Shown here: in pieces, positions 29,807-34,520 of the stretch
Numbering within the stretch: the stretch's first letter is position 1
Layout: every line of letters begins with the position of its first letter
Sequence record: PZ019086.1
Direction: 5' to 3' (one strand)
Source of the DNA: a phage
Length of the DNA: 64,000 nucleotides
Translations under genes and position numbers: made by a program
The notes under the pieces: generated by a model
What the model saw: only the letters and a program-made list of their open reading frames with translations
What the model was told of the DNA's origin: nothing
Databases searched by the model: none

Positions 29807-30775
29807 TTATTTCAGAAGAGTAACCTCAGCAATTTCTTCCCAACCGTTTTTGTCGGTCATAATAAAGTCAGCAAGATAAAGAGCAGTACGCAGTGAAACA
29901 TTGCGTAAACGGTTAACATTAACTTTCATCCATGATAATGCTTTATAAGTTTCTTCATCAGAAAGACCGCGCTTTTGCATCATATCAGTTGAAAGAATAA
30001 CATCTTCAACCCTGACCATAATTTCTTCATTAGTGTGAACACCCAAATCTAAATAAACTGAGCGGGACACTAATGCTTGTAAATGTGGAGCAAGTTTAGT
30101 ACCACGGTCTAATTCGCGGTCAATGTCAACGTTTGTGATAAAAACAATCGTTCCTTTAAATTCAAACTCACGGTCAATGCCTTTTTCTTCTAAGTAAGAA
30201 GATGCAGTGCTCCAGCAGACTTTACGGGTCTCTCCAGTGTCCAGAGCAGCTTTTAGAAGATTAAGAATGTCCATATCAGAGAAAACATCCACATCATCAA
30301 TCAAAAGGACAGAATTCTCTTCACGATTATTCCAAAGCTGTTCATAAAGACCAATACCAGAGATTTTACCGTTAATGCTTTTATATTCAATGTATCCATT
30401 ATCATTTGCTTTATTTAAAGCTTTATCTAAAGAATACGTTTTACCAATACCTGCTGCGCCAGAGATAATCAATGAACGAATATTTCCATTAATAATACCA
30501 TTCGTCATCATTCCCATAACATTAAATCTTTTATTAATGCGGGTTTTCATATCTTCATATGATTCTTTAACTTCTTCAACTTTTACACCATCATATGAAA
30601 TATCTGATTTGTAAACCCAAACACCGCGACGTTTACCGTCAATTTCAACAAAAACTTTACCATCTCCTTGTGCATCTACCGGAGCATTATCTGGGAACCA
30701 TTCGCCTAAGAGCTCAAAAGTTCCAGAGATTTCTTTACCGAAGTAGATACCCTTATTGATAGTTACAGTTTTCAT
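29807..30775 (-). CDS. AAA+ ATPase
   Basis: Walker A GAAGIGKT, Walker B VLLIDDVD; start moved from track GTG to ATG at 30775 with GGAGA RBS. Confidence 0.7.
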   Translation of the reverse strand: MKTVTINKGIYFGKEISGTFELLGEWFPDNAPVDAQGDGKVFVEIDGKRRGVWVYKSDISYDGVKVEEVKESYEDMKTRINKRFNVMGMMTNGIINGNIRSLIISGAAGIGKTYSLDKALNKANDNGYIEYKSINGKISGIGLYEQLWNNREENSVLLIDDVDVFSDMDILNLLKAALDTGETRKVCWSTASSYLEEKGIDREFEFKGTIVFITNVDIDRELDRGTKLAPHLQALVSRSVYLDLGVHTNEEIMVRVEDVILSTDMMQKRGLSDEETYKALSWMKVNVNRLRNVSLRTALYLADFIMTDKNGWEEIAEVTLLK

Positions 30776-30806
30776 TTTATTCTCCAATTTCACATTTGTT
30801 TTGATA

Positions 30807-30843
30807 GGGTAATAGTATCACACTACTACCCTACTGTAAACAA
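30807..30843 (-). promoter_or_regulatory. T4-type early promoter
   Basis: Plus strand gtaatagtatcaca...tgtaaac; approximate. Confidence 0.6.
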
Positions 30844-30844
30844 T

Positions 30845-31108
30845 TTATTTTAATGTTCGCCAAATTTTTACTGCTTCGCGACGAGATACTTCTACAGCTC
30901 CAAGTTCTACGGCTTTTTGGCGGCGGCGCGCGTGTAAGTCATAATGTTTAATGCGTTTATCTTGAAACCAAGAGCGTTTCATTCCTATTGCTTCTGCCAT
31001 TTCATGAAGCTCTTCAATATCTCCATCAGTGAACATATGACAATTTTTAGTTGGATGACCGCGAAGTTTCCATCCATGATTCATTAAAACATCTACGTAA
31101 ACTGTCAT
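30845..31108 (-). CDS. Small conserved protein (DUF4031-like, nrdC.11 position)
   Basis: 87 aa, MTVYVDVLMNHGWKLRGHP...; family assignment from memory. Confidence 0.55.
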   Translation of the reverse strand: MTVYVDVLMNHGWKLRGHPTKNCHMFTDGDIEELHEMAEAIGMKRSWFQDKRIKHYDLHARRRQKAVELGAVEVSRREAVKIWRTLK

Positions 31109-31254
31109 TGATTCTGCTCCAAATATGTTTCTATAATTTTCTGAGCGAGATAAACTGCGTTATCTTCAGTTGCATCTTCTAAGAAATTTTCAAAACAAGC
31201 TGAAATCTCTTCTGTGTCAATCAACTTTTTTACTTCAATTAACGTAGTTTTCAT
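31105..31254 (-). CDS. Small acidic protein (49 aa), not in ORF track
   Basis: ATG with GGGGAATAAA RBS right after an early promoter; stop overlaps next start (ATGA); approximate. Confidence 0.4.
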   Translation of the reverse strand: MKTTLIEVKKLIDTEEISACFENFLEDATEDNAVYLAQKIIETYLEQNQ

Positions 31255-31283
31255 TTTATTCCCCAAATCCACATCAGTTGATA

Positions 31284-31347: not shown

Positions 31348-31367
31348 AGGGAGCCCGAAGGCTCCCT
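31348..31367 (-). terminator. UUCG-loop hairpin closing the accessory island operon
   Basis: agggagcccgaaggctccct directly 3' of the nucleotidyltransferase stop; approximate. Confidence 0.55.
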
Positions 31368-31368
31368 A

Positions 31369-32379
31369 TCATTTATAATAACTTCGATGGTTTTCAAGAT
31401 AGACCTTCTCAAGGAAGTCATCCCAGAAACTCATGTCTACTTTTTGCTGCATACCGTTCTTAGAAGCTTCAGTAGATGCTGCTTCTACTTGATCGACCAC
31501 ATCTTCCAAAAACTCTTGAACAATTTTAAATGGATGTTTACCCAACTTCACGTCGAGAATAAATGGAGCGTCTTGAAGTGGATAGACTAAGTCACCAGTT
31601 TTGTAAATTTCCAATAGTTGAAGTCCACCACGACAAGCATGGCTCAGAGCTTTCCAGTCAATACCTTCGTTGGCTTCGGCCTTACGGGCACGTTCACCAT
31701 ATTCAGCATCTAATTTGTTCAGTGACTGCTTAAGCTCAATAAGAGAAAGCGTTGTCTGATATTTACGACCCAACACAGTGTAAAACGTTTGTGGACCTGT
31801 TTTCTCATGATTATGGAACACCCATTCACAGAATTCGTTTTCTGGAAGACGATGCTTAATATCTTCAACTTTAGTACGACGCTGCTTAATGGAACCGTCT
31901 TCTTGGTAATCAACCCATTGCTCAGGGATTTGATTAACTACTTTCAATACATCGCGTAATGCAGCCAAACGAGAACCCTTGACACCGTATTTAGAAGCTT
32001 GCTTGCGGACATATCCTAAATAGGATTTCATGTTAGTCGTATAAAAACGAGAACGATTGTCTTGAATAAACTTCCATACATCAGGCAAATCAGATTTAAC
32101 CACTAGCTCGGGTGGAGTGTGGAGCATATCCAATGCTACAGTTTCACCATCTGCTGCTAATTTAAAGAAATACTTAAGACTGTATAGTTCATGGTCAATA
32201 TCATCTTTAGTGTTTTTAGATGATGTGTTGTTAGTGTTTTTACTCATATGCTCTTTAACATTTCCGATAAGAATATCGCGAGCAGGAGGAACAAAGATTT
32301 CTTTAAAATCTACATCAGATTCTGGAGTAGAAGTTCCATAAAGATGACTACCAAAATAAGACTTAACTACAGTTTTCAT
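31369..32379 (-). CDS. Polymerase-beta superfamily nucleotidyltransferase-like protein with C-terminal helical domain
   Basis: 336 aa; N-terminal GS-x9-DVD motif (YFGSHLYGTSTPESDVDF) and a third acidic residue about 60 aa later (ETVALDML); ATG overlaps upstream stop (TAATG); AAGGA RBS. Confidence 0.65.
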   Translation of the reverse strand: MKTVVKSYFGSHLYGTSTPESDVDFKEIFVPPARDILIGNVKEHMSKNTNNTSSKNTKDDIDHELYSLKYFFKLAADGETVALDMLHTPPELVVKSDLPDVWKFIQDNRSRFYTTNMKSYLGYVRKQASKYGVKGSRLAALRDVLKVVNQIPEQWVDYQEDGSIKQRRTKVEDIKHRLPENEFCEWVFHNHEKTGPQTFYTVLGRKYQTTLSLIELKQSLNKLDAEYGERARKAEANEGIDWKALSHACRGGLQLLEIYKTGDLVYPLQDAPFILDVKLGKHPFKIVQEFLEDVVDQVEAASTEASKNGMQQKVDMSFWDDFLEKVYLENHRSYYK

Positions 32380-32840
32380 TATTTATCCTTATATTCAATA
32401 ACAGGACATACTTTAGCTTTACTCGCTTTTAAAAATTCGACGATAATAGATTTCTTGGGTTGAATAGGAGGTAAACCTTTATACGCCCTATCAATATTTT
32501 CTACATGTAAAGCATAATCCTTTTTCCATTTATAATCTTTATATTTTTCACGCAGTTGTACAGGAATAACAAATGAACCAATAATAAGTAAAACAAGCAA
32601 AATGACAAGTACAAATGCTGATGGAATAAGAGTCCATAAACTACCAAAAATAAGCCATTTCTGTATGATTTCTGCACAGATGATAGTTAGACCTGCGAGT
32701 ACAGTACATCCGAAAAAAGAAACGAAAAATGTAGGGATAACAATAGACCAAAAGTATGCACATAGTGTCTTAGGTCGTTTCCATTCATCATTAAACATTT
32801 TGAATAATTTATAATGCCAAGAGTTTTCATTAATAATCAT
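32379..32840 (-). CDS. Small membrane protein (2-3 predicted TM helices) translationally coupled to the nucleotidyltransferase
   Basis: 153 aa; hydrophobic segments FWSIVIPTFFVSFFGCTVLAGLTIICAEII and LIPSAFVLVILLVLLIIGSFVI; basic C-terminal tail. Confidence 0.6.
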   Translation of the reverse strand: MIINENSWHYKLFKMFNDEWKRPKTLCAYFWSIVIPTFFVSFFGCTVLAGLTIICAEIIQKWLIFGSLWTLIPSAFVLVILLVLLIIGSFVIPVQLREKYKDYKWKKDYALHVENIDRAYKGLPPIQPKKSIIVEFLKASKAKVCPVIEYKDK

Positions 32841-32842
32841 AA

Positions 32843-33364
32843 TTATCCTTTCATTGAAGGTGTAACAGTTGTTAAATACTTAATCATAGCTTCAGCTTCT
32901 GATTTTGATAATGAAATTTCTCCATTGTTTTGACGAATAGAAATAAAATCCGGATGACGGTCACCACCAGCTTTTAAAACACACATGTAAGTATCAACTT
33001 CGCCTTCAATATTTGAAATGATTGAAGCAGTTCCACATGAATGTGGTTGTTGATAAACTAATACAGCTTTTCTTCCACCGTTTGACTGTTCATAAACTTT
33101 TAACACATCAAACAAATCACTTCTTTTATCAATAGCTAAGATGTTGTTTTCATCTTCAATGTTAAATCCTTCGGATATTTCATAAAGTGTCACCCATAAA
33201 TCGCCAATATCAATGACAGCATTCACCTTTCCATGATTTTCAAGAGCATTACAAATTTTCTTAATTTCATCATAACTCATTTTAATAATATCATCTCCTT
33301 GAATAAAGAAGATGTCATTTTTAAATTCAACGCGAATTAAACCACTTTCACTTGAAATAAACAT
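32843..33364 (-). CDS. Hypothetical protein, paralog A of a tandem pair
   Basis: 173 aa; shares GFNIE-E and C-terminal IRQ...L-K-EA--L-KYL--V-P-M pattern with the adjacent 183-aa protein. Confidence 0.6.
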   Translation of the reverse strand: MFISSESGLIRVEFKNDIFFIQGDDIIKMSYDEIKKICNALENHGKVNAVIDIGDLWVTLYEISEGFNIEDENNILAIDKRSDLFDVLKVYEQSNGGRKAVLVYQQPHSCGTASIISNIEGEVDTYMCVLKAGGDRHPDFISIRQNNGEISLSKSEAEAMIKYLTTVTPSMKG

Positions 33365-33370
33365 ATTTCC

Positions 33371-33922
33371 TCACTTTGAAATCATAGTTGGAATGACAGA
33401 ATCAAGATAAGTCTTTAATAAAACAGCTTCTTCTTTGTTTAATACAACAACATTAACATCATTTACCGATTGACGAATAGTTAAGACATCTCCCTCTTCA
33501 TAGCATTTTGATACATTTAAAACAGTTTCATAATTTTGATTACAAGCGTTAGTAATAATAGCATTGCAATTTTTAAACCATTTTAAACCATGTTTTCTTT
33601 CATTAGAATAATAGAAATATTTAATCTTAGCTATAAAATTATCCCAATTATTAATTGATAAGCATATTGACTCGCTTTCAATATTAAATCCTGGGCATAA
33701 AGAATAAAAATGAATTTTATGCTCATCATTAATGCTTACAATTTTATCAGTGTATGGTTTTTCAATTTGGGTTAAATGAATAATTTCGCTAGGCGTAAAA
33801 TATAGCATATCGTCTTCTTGCGTCAAACGATACATATTATTTACTTTTTCTATAGCCAATTCACCAAAAAGTGAACTAACTTCTAGTACTAATCGTTTCA
33901 TATTAATCCTTTTTATTGGCAT
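33371..33922 (-). CDS. Hypothetical protein, paralog B of a tandem pair
   Basis: 183 aa; see paralog A. Confidence 0.6.
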   Translation of the reverse strand: MPIKRINMKRLVLEVSSLFGELAIEKVNNMYRLTQEDDMLYFTPSEIIHLTQIEKPYTDKIVSINDEHKIHFYSLCPGFNIESESICLSINNWDNFIAKIKYFYYSNERKHGLKWFKNCNAIITNACNQNYETVLNVSKCYEEGDVLTIRQSVNDVNVVVLNKEEAVLLKTYLDSVIPTMISK

Positions 33923-34484: not shown

Positions 34485-34520
34485 GATTACTATATCATAA
34501 CCTTGCCAACTTGTAAACCA
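34485..34520 (-). promoter_or_regulatory. T4-type early promoter (internal to the island)
   Basis: Minus-strand GGTTTACAAGTTGGCAAGGTTATGATATAGTAAT; approximate. Confidence 0.5.

Follow-up and report, generated by a model that had tools for sequence, protein, structure and literature searches.

The RlaP nucleotidyltransferases of Pseudomonas (PfRlaP and PaRlaP) add 1-2 NMPs to the 3'-OH ends of RNA (Carruthers, Fatma and Huang, PMC12776372). They take any NTP as nucleotide donor, and dATP too, prefer Mn2+ as the metal, and act on neither DNA nor proteins (PMC12776372). Nicked-tRNA mimics are the preferred substrates, in which the 3' end of the 5' half is favoured over the acceptor end, and the aminoacylation of a tRNA short of one nucleotide was partly restored by RlaP (PMC12776372). 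RlaP was proposed as an antidote to nucleotide-excising ribotoxins such as RloC (PMC12776372), and a comparative-genomics review made the same antidote prediction for jumbo phages. Both RNA ligases of T4 require a 3'-OH, which is the type of end left by RlaP (PMC12776372). T4 NrdC.11 is explicitly listed as an RlaP member, in cluster 5 of the family (PMC12776372). The nrdC.11 gene is already known: its annotation as a nucleotidyltransferase goes back to 2006, its assignment to RlaP to 2016 and the biochemistry of the family to 2025. T4 deleted for nrdC.11-mobD.3 is viable, and nrdC.11 is non-essential in the laboratory.

We analysed a 64,000-nt stretch of phage DNA (sequence record PZ019086.1), which is called the window below. 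A 5.5-kb region of it showed 95-97% nucleotide identity to hundreds of Tequatrovirus genomes, so by its sequence the window is Tequatrovirus DNA. A preliminary description of the window had pointed out two adjacent ORFs, one for a nucleotidyltransferase whose family was left open and one for a small membrane protein. Both ORFs are real genes with many relatives, and the family can now be named, because the enzyme gene is nrdC.11 of T4. The features of the locus are as follows.

31369..32379, minus strand: nrdC.11 ortholog, 336 aa (ORF; amino acid identity to T4, PF10127, phrog_388, AF2)
32379..32840, minus strand: predicted membrane-protein gene, 153 aa, PHROG 944 (ORF; phrog_944, hydropathy, charge, motifs, AF2)
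32377..32390, minus strand: stop/start junction with AAGGA and TAATG (sequence reading)
31348..31367, minus strand: intrinsic-terminator-like hairpin, 8-bp stem with 6 GC pairs, then a T run
34489..34517, minus strand: sigma-70/T4-early-like promoter, TTTACA-17-TATAGT with an upstream TG (consensus scan only)
32843..33922, minus strand: tandem pair of MobD.1/y05I-like genes for proteins of 173 and 183 aa (each matched by PF24449 and PF24448)

Family assignment of the 336-aa protein

The 336-aa protein had 98.8% amino acid identity to T4 NrdC.11 (NP_049709, T4p095; also 336 aa), and on sequence grounds its gene is the ortholog of T4 nrdC.11 and encodes a divergent long-form RlaP-family Pol-beta nucleotidyltransferase. 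Pfam PF10127 (RlaP, "RNA repair pathway DNA polymerase beta family") matched residues 7-134 with 43.7 bits, and the curated cut-off of this model is 23 bits. PHROG 388 "nucleotidyltransferase" (phrog_388) also matched the protein, with an E value of 1e-135. The same Pfam model matched all 44 of the diverse relatives that were aligned (best E 2e-19). The enzyme family is large, with 3370 representatives at 50% clustering (E<=1e-3) and 1520 phage records.

For comparison with the canonical form, nine full-length canonical RlaPs (PF10127 E down to 6e-81) were taken from bacterial contigs, where they are encoded immediately downstream of NrdC.11-like genes. The hhalign comparison of the NrdC.11 family with these nine proteins gave a probability of 92% and an E value of 6e-7, and it covered residues 4-130 only. 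By Pfam as well as by hhalign, the alignment to canonical RlaP was confined to the N-terminal ~130 residues and there was nothing past ~134. PDB sequence searches with the 336-aa protein, with its N-terminal domain and with the family profile gave no match, and in the PDB copy searched there was no match by sequence to the PfRlaP structure. NCBIfam and PADLOC gave no usable match for the enzyme or for the membrane protein.

Active site and predicted structure

The preliminary description had read a Pol-beta superfamily active site from a GS motif, a DVD motif and a third acidic residue within ETVALDML. The first two motifs were borne out as an intact Pol-beta-type active site, and GS and both Asp of DVD were invariant in 44 sequences. 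The residues concerned are listed below.

32128..32352, minus strand: active-site region (44-sequence alignment, hhalign)
32352-32347, minus strand: G10-S11, invariant in 44 sequences
32316-32308, minus strand: D22 and D24 of D22-V-D24, both Asp invariant in 44 sequences
32196-32194, minus strand: D62, likely third catalytic Asp, invariant in 44 sequences
32130-32128, minus strand: D84, fourth conserved acidic residue, conserved at least 90% in 44 sequences

The full set of invariant residues in the 44-member alignment was G10, S11, G15, S21, D22, D24, N56, D62, Y131, R230, K243, R250 and K278, and D60 was conserved at least 90%, as was D84. In the hhalign comparison, GSHLYG was paired with GSRAWG and SD.D with SDYD of canonical RlaP, D62 fell on the invariant Asp of the canonical "LD.NGWD", and D84 fell on an invariant Glu. 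The AF2 model placed D62 on a beta-strand and D84 in a helix. So D84, the acidic residue of ETVALDML, was dropped, and D62 appears more likely to be the third catalytic carboxylate, because it is aligned to the canonical Asp and three aspartates are strictly conserved in RlaP (PMC12776372).

The AF2 model of NrdC.11, which was built on the 44-member alignment, had a pLDDT of 93.1 and contained an N-terminal alpha/beta nucleotidyltransferase domain (~residues 1-115). The C-terminal ~220 aa were helical, as had been described, but they did not form an uninterrupted helical domain, since a beta-rich insert was modelled at ~154-208. Among the structural matches listed, the nearest solved folds were template-independent or KNTase-type nucleotidyltransferases. 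Since only the N-terminal ~130 residues align to canonical RlaP, the specificity could differ, through the substrate-binding C-terminal domain and the beta insert in it. Long-form and canonical RlaP genes often stand in tandem in bacteria, which implies that the two forms are not redundant.

Gene layout and transcription unit

The stop codon TAA of the 153-aa ORF (32381-32379) and the ATG of the 336-aa ORF (32379-32377) share one base, 32379, and the Shine-Dalgarno sequence AAGGA at 32390-32386 lies six bases 5' of the nrdC.11 ATG. The terminator-like hairpin (31367-31348) is found directly 3' of the nrdC.11 stop, with a T4-early-like promoter beyond it, and this hairpin marks the end of the nrdC.11 transcription unit. 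In the consensus scan, the closest upstream promoter-like site with a TG was at 34517-34489, and it is the probable start of a ~3-kb unit that ends in the membrane gene and nrdC.11. A second terminator-like hairpin is present at 35363-35346. From the hairpins and promoter-like sites, the membrane gene and nrdC.11 would thus be the last two genes of a tightly packed ~3-kb unit. The two MobD.1/y05I-like genes lie upstream within this unit; they are context only and no part of the enzyme. The scan of the locus found no Rfam family and no notable repeat.

Of the rI lysis-inhibition genes, which had been mentioned as neighbours of this locus, rI lies ~2.9 kb upstream, and one terminator-like and one promoter-like site lie between it and the nrdC.11 unit. 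We dropped a link to lysis inhibition: rI is transcribed as part of another unit, and that it occurs together with the enzyme reflects only collinearity.

Conservation of the two-gene arrangement

To determine how often the two genes are found together, the ORFs of 91 enzyme-carrying phage loci were searched by profile within a range of 7 kb. The membrane gene was found within 7 kb of the enzyme at 46 loci. It abutted the enzyme at about 14 of the 91, which are Tequatro-, Mosig- and Dhaka-like phages, and at about 32 it lay 300-2600 bp upstream with other genes between. This search did not find it at the other 45 of the 91 loci, and nearly all loci with an enzyme of <=50% identity fall among these. 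Where present, the membrane gene was always upstream and co-oriented, across Tevenvirinae and Acinetobacter phages, and one phage locus had an additional, downstream copy. In distant metagenomic homologs, a 94-aa gene stood between the membrane gene and the enzyme. None of 79 bacterial and archaeal loci carrying NrdC.11-like genes had the membrane gene.

T4 itself has the enzyme, but the whole T4 genome (168,903 bp) contained no membrane homolog, and the best profile match (E 0.038) was on an antisense ORF. T4 diverges from the window exactly at 32384-33345, starting four bases beyond the enzyme ATG, and in this interval T4 has mobD where the window has the membrane gene and one MobD.1-like paralog. 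The reverse case was Aeromonas phage Asswx_1, which has the membrane gene and no enzyme within 20 kb. We also counted how often several genes occur with the enzyme at 90 loci (membrane gene 45, rI 52, rI.-1 43, NrdC.10 36), and this showed that the membrane gene co-occurs with the enzyme no oftener than unrelated neighbours such as rI.

The start/stop overlap had been taken as translational coupling. The overlap exists, as TAATG at 32379, but it is not distinctive, because 17 of 34 junctions in the homologous region of T4 (45-62 kb) have overlapping stop and start codons; so with half of the neighbouring T4 junctions like it, the overlap was dropped as a sign of functional coupling. Together, the survey, the absence from T4, the Asswx_1 locus and the junction counts indicated that the adjacency comes from collinearity and tight packing and not from an obligate two-gene system. 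Thus NrdC.11 has no conserved partner in the membrane gene, which is dispensable, being absent from T4. A loose functional link to the enzyme is possible, because the membrane gene keeps its upstream, co-oriented placement at the loci that have it.

The 153-aa membrane protein

The 153-aa protein matched phrog_944 with an E value of 4e-49, and its family is present in 939 phage records. It had been described as membrane-embedded, and hydropathy and the AF2 model agreed with this, with two predicted helices. The two long hydrophobic stretches span residues 26-56 and 63-95, and the termini on either side are rich in lysine and arginine, a pattern that suggests a two-helix hairpin in the inner membrane (N-in/C-in) with both termini cytoplasmic. 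The AF2 model likewise had two long transmembrane helices, at low confidence (pLDDT 64). The conserved motifs of the PHROG 944 protein were SWHYK..PKTLCxYFW at the N-terminus and KxKVCPxIEY at the C-terminus, and H9, C27 and C145 were invariant in the family. Pfam, NCBIfam and PADLOC had no family for the protein, its profile gave only noise-level matches against PDB chains, and the fold search with the low-confidence model (pLDDT 64) gave nothing meaningful, HalA included; at this model confidence the fold search carries little information.

RNA-repair neighbourhood and proposed role of NrdC.11

The genes around NrdC.11-like genes were surveyed at the 79 bacterial and archaeal loci, approximately three genes either way. 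A second RlaP was nearby at 10 of the 79 cellular loci and Hen1 at 4; a Pnkp ligase domain, RtcA and RtcB were each found at 2, and a T4-type Rnl1 and TROVE at 1 each. A viral contig (L090) had a contiguous series of an HD-phosphohydrolase/kinase gene, Rnl1 and the NrdC.11-like gene, in this order. Two short clusters stood on other distant viral or metagenomic contigs, one with Rnl1 and a kinase directly preceding the NrdC.11-like enzyme (L069), and the other with the NrdC.11-like enzyme followed by a T4-type Pnkp and then Rnl1 (L095). T4 carries pseT, rnlA and rnlB; nrdC.11 adjoins neither pseT nor rnlA in the window or in T4, and both lie elsewhere in T4. The neighbourhood of the clade fits the repair of tRNA cut by host nucleases, and the Pnkp-Rnl1-NrdC.11 clusters of distant phages support the published RNA-repair hypothesis and make it easy to test.

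So we consider it probable that NrdC.11 is an RlaP RNA-repair nucleotidyltransferase in Pnkp/Rnl1 tRNA repair and that the membrane gene is independent of it. In this pathway, Pnkp (PseT) would heal the ends and leave a 3'-OH. NrdC.11, with G10-S11, D22, D24 and probably D62 as its catalytic residues, would act after Pnkp and before Rnl1 and put back the nucleotides excised by host anticodon nucleases, for example RloC. Rnl1 would then seal the ends, and the repaired tRNA would be functional again. We infer the order Pnkp, NrdC.11, Rnl1 because ligases need a 3'-OH and RlaP leaves a 3'-OH. The 153-aa gene would be an independent, dispensable early membrane-protein gene, which stands beside nrdC.11 through collinearity and T4-like packing of the early region, and the one-base overlap would come from this tight packing and not from a two-component module.

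The enzyme could also work on the 3' acceptor end of tRNA or on other RNA 3' ends, by restoring CCA or by tailing, independently of ligation. RlaP does label full-length tRNAs and rRNAs and extends the 3'-OH of single-stranded RNA with any NTP (PMC12776372), and T4-like phages have tRNA genes of their own. However, the preference of RlaP for the 3' end of the 5' half in nicked-tRNA mimics (PMC12776372) goes against it, and ligases and end-healing enzymes recur beside the gene, which points to a step before ligation, so we regard a role at the acceptor end as unlikely.

It is very unlikely that NrdC.11 nucleotidylylates a protein or a small molecule, for instance by AMPylating a host factor or by modifying an antibiotic-like compound as KNTases do. 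Its closest folds included the aminoglycoside nucleotidyltransferases, that for kanamycin among them, and the AMPylating DrrA, and HEPN domains matched the helical part, including a HEPN toxin that is AMPylated by its MNT antitoxin. Kanamycin nucleotidyltransferase and the MNT-HEPN enzymes have 9-15% sequence identity to NrdC.11 and different substrates, which is a likeness at the superfamily level only.

Signalling and defence readings

Tandem occurrence with canonical RlaP in bacteria, a C-terminal domain of its own with a beta insert, and HalB as the nearest solved fold would also allow the long-form NrdC.11 clade to be an oligonucleotide synthase. Its product would be a short, possibly protein-primed oligonucleotide, which is sensed by or gates the co-transcribed membrane protein in Tequatro-, Mosig- and Dhaka-type phages, or the enzyme would be an anti-Hailong decoy that keeps HalA closed. 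We hold this to be highly improbable.

The narrower form, in which NrdC.11 is a HalB-like protein-primed oligodeoxyadenylate synthase whose product gates the adjacent membrane protein or keeps HalA closed, is extremely doubtful. Hailong HalB was indeed the best solved-structure match of NrdC.11 among the matches listed, but this match was weak (Foldseek TM 0.23-0.38) and covered part of the protein. The PDB searches found no sequence similarity between NrdC.11 and HalB, and the membrane protein, in its low-confidence model (pLDDT 64), had neither a sequence nor a fold match to HalA, which a review describes as a channel of four subunits that has a crown-like extension on the cytoplasmic side. 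An effector that is toxic without its synthase would be expected to co-occur with it obligately, but the two genes are not co-inherited: T4 has the enzyme alone, and in Asswx_1 no enzyme gene lies within 20 kb of the membrane gene. In addition, characterised RlaPs do not extend DNA (PMC12776372), and the clade is found in an RNA-repair context.

The suggestion of a CBASS-like minimal pair, in which a cyclic or linear nucleotide signal from the enzyme activates the membrane effector, is largely refuted and now close to nil, because only the arrangement itself speaks for it (a Pol-beta nucleotidyltransferase gene whose start codon overlaps the stop of a neighbouring membrane-protein gene), whereas the Pfam family is RlaP and not CD-NTase, the PADLOC models gave no CBASS or other defence match for either protein, the pairing is unconserved (no membrane gene in T4, at 45 of 91 phage loci or at the 79 cellular loci), overlapping junctions are the norm in T4-type genomes, and no CD-NTase was found by sequence or among the structural matches listed, which also upholds the earlier remark that the enzyme is not cGAS/DncV-like.

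Comparison with known systems

CBASS resembles the locus in the catalytic motif of the Pol-beta superfamily and in the membrane-protein neighbour, but NrdC.11 differs in having its GS motif at residue 10, no match to a defence HMM and no conserved operon. HalB of Hailong has 217 aa, compared with 336 aa for NrdC.11.

T4 NrdC.11 is the ortholog, and it is alike in length (336 aa), in strand and in its place, with nrdC.10 on one side and the mobD.1 block on the other. The differences lie around the gene: T4 has the HNH homing endonuclease gene mobD upstream of nrdC.11 in place of the membrane gene of the window, and between nrdC.10 and nrdC.11 the window has two additional small genes, one for a DUF4031 protein and one a 55-aa ORF.

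Compared with the RlaPs of P. fluorescens and P. aeruginosa, NrdC.11 belongs to cluster 5 and not to cluster 1a (PMC12776372) and is ~80 residues longer, and the alignment to canonical RlaP does not extend into its C-terminal domain, where the beta-rich insert lies. What NrdC.11 shares with canonical RlaP is the two-domain build of a nucleotidyltransferase domain and a helical domain, with GS, DxD and the third Asp aligned in the N-terminal part, and NrdC.11-like relatives also adjoin RNA ligases and end-healing enzymes.

NrdC.11-like genes in bacteria and in repair clusters

At least nine bacterial loci (contigs L094, L111, L122, L127, L144, L145, L146, L160 and L161) had, directly downstream of the gene for the NrdC.11-like long form of RlaP, a second gene that encodes a full-length canonical RlaP (about 255-275 aa). 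This tandem arrangement in bacteria suggests that the two RlaP forms have different, complementary specificities. The NrdC.11-like enzyme was also found joined to polynucleotide kinase/phosphatase and a T4-type Rnl1 ligase in short clusters on distant viral or metagenomic contigs, which are listed below.

Repair clusters with an NrdC.11-like gene
L090, 4372-7930: the three genes contiguous
L095, 62-3803
L069, 991-6311

Mosaic structure and beta-rich insert of nrdC.11

The nrdC.11 gene was 96.5% identical to that of T4. Its 3' half (31400-31900) is a mosaic patch: compared with phage vB_EcoM_P8, it had 59-83% nucleotide identity and most of the flanking 100-bp windows had 90-100%. The AF2 model of the enzyme placed a beta-rich insert of five strands and a short helix in the helical domain (residues about 154-208, window 31756-31920), and the 249-position Pfam RlaP model contained no counterpart of it. 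This insert may be an extra RNA-binding element.

Conserved residues of the membrane protein

In the family of the membrane protein encoded at 32379-32840 (minus strand), H9, C27 and C145 were invariant. These residues lie within conserved segments at both predicted cytoplasmic ends of the protein, a placement that hints at a common metal or redox site. Some homologs carried an additional 85-aa N-terminal domain (Proteus phage, 242 aa).

Differences from T4 around nrdC.11

The neighboring genes were as follows.

29807-30793: NrdC.10 ortholog, P-loop ATPase
30845..31108: DUF4031 gene, between nrdC.10 and nrdC.11
31105..31272: gene for a 55-aa product, between nrdC.10 and nrdC.11
32843-33922: two tandem MobD.1/y05I-like paralogs from a family of putative transcription factors, with matches to PF24449 and PF24448

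Against the STAND-type NTPase models nSTAND3 and AAA_16 the NrdC.10 ortholog scored weakly, below threshold, and it had no hit among the defence-system models. The DUF4031 and 55-aa genes had an early-like promoter of their own in front, and their segment (30788-31245) had no counterpart in T4. On the other side of nrdC.11, sequence comparison identified a divergent segment (window 32384-33345, T4 locus L002 11430-12258): homology with T4 broke precisely 4 bases upstream of the nrdC.11 ATG and was back from 33346 on. The HNH homing endonuclease gene mobD of T4 stands where the window has the membrane gene and one MobD.1/y05I-like paralog, so the window looks like a mobD-less allele of the mobD site, and it carries two MobD.1/y05I-like paralogs whereas T4 has only one.
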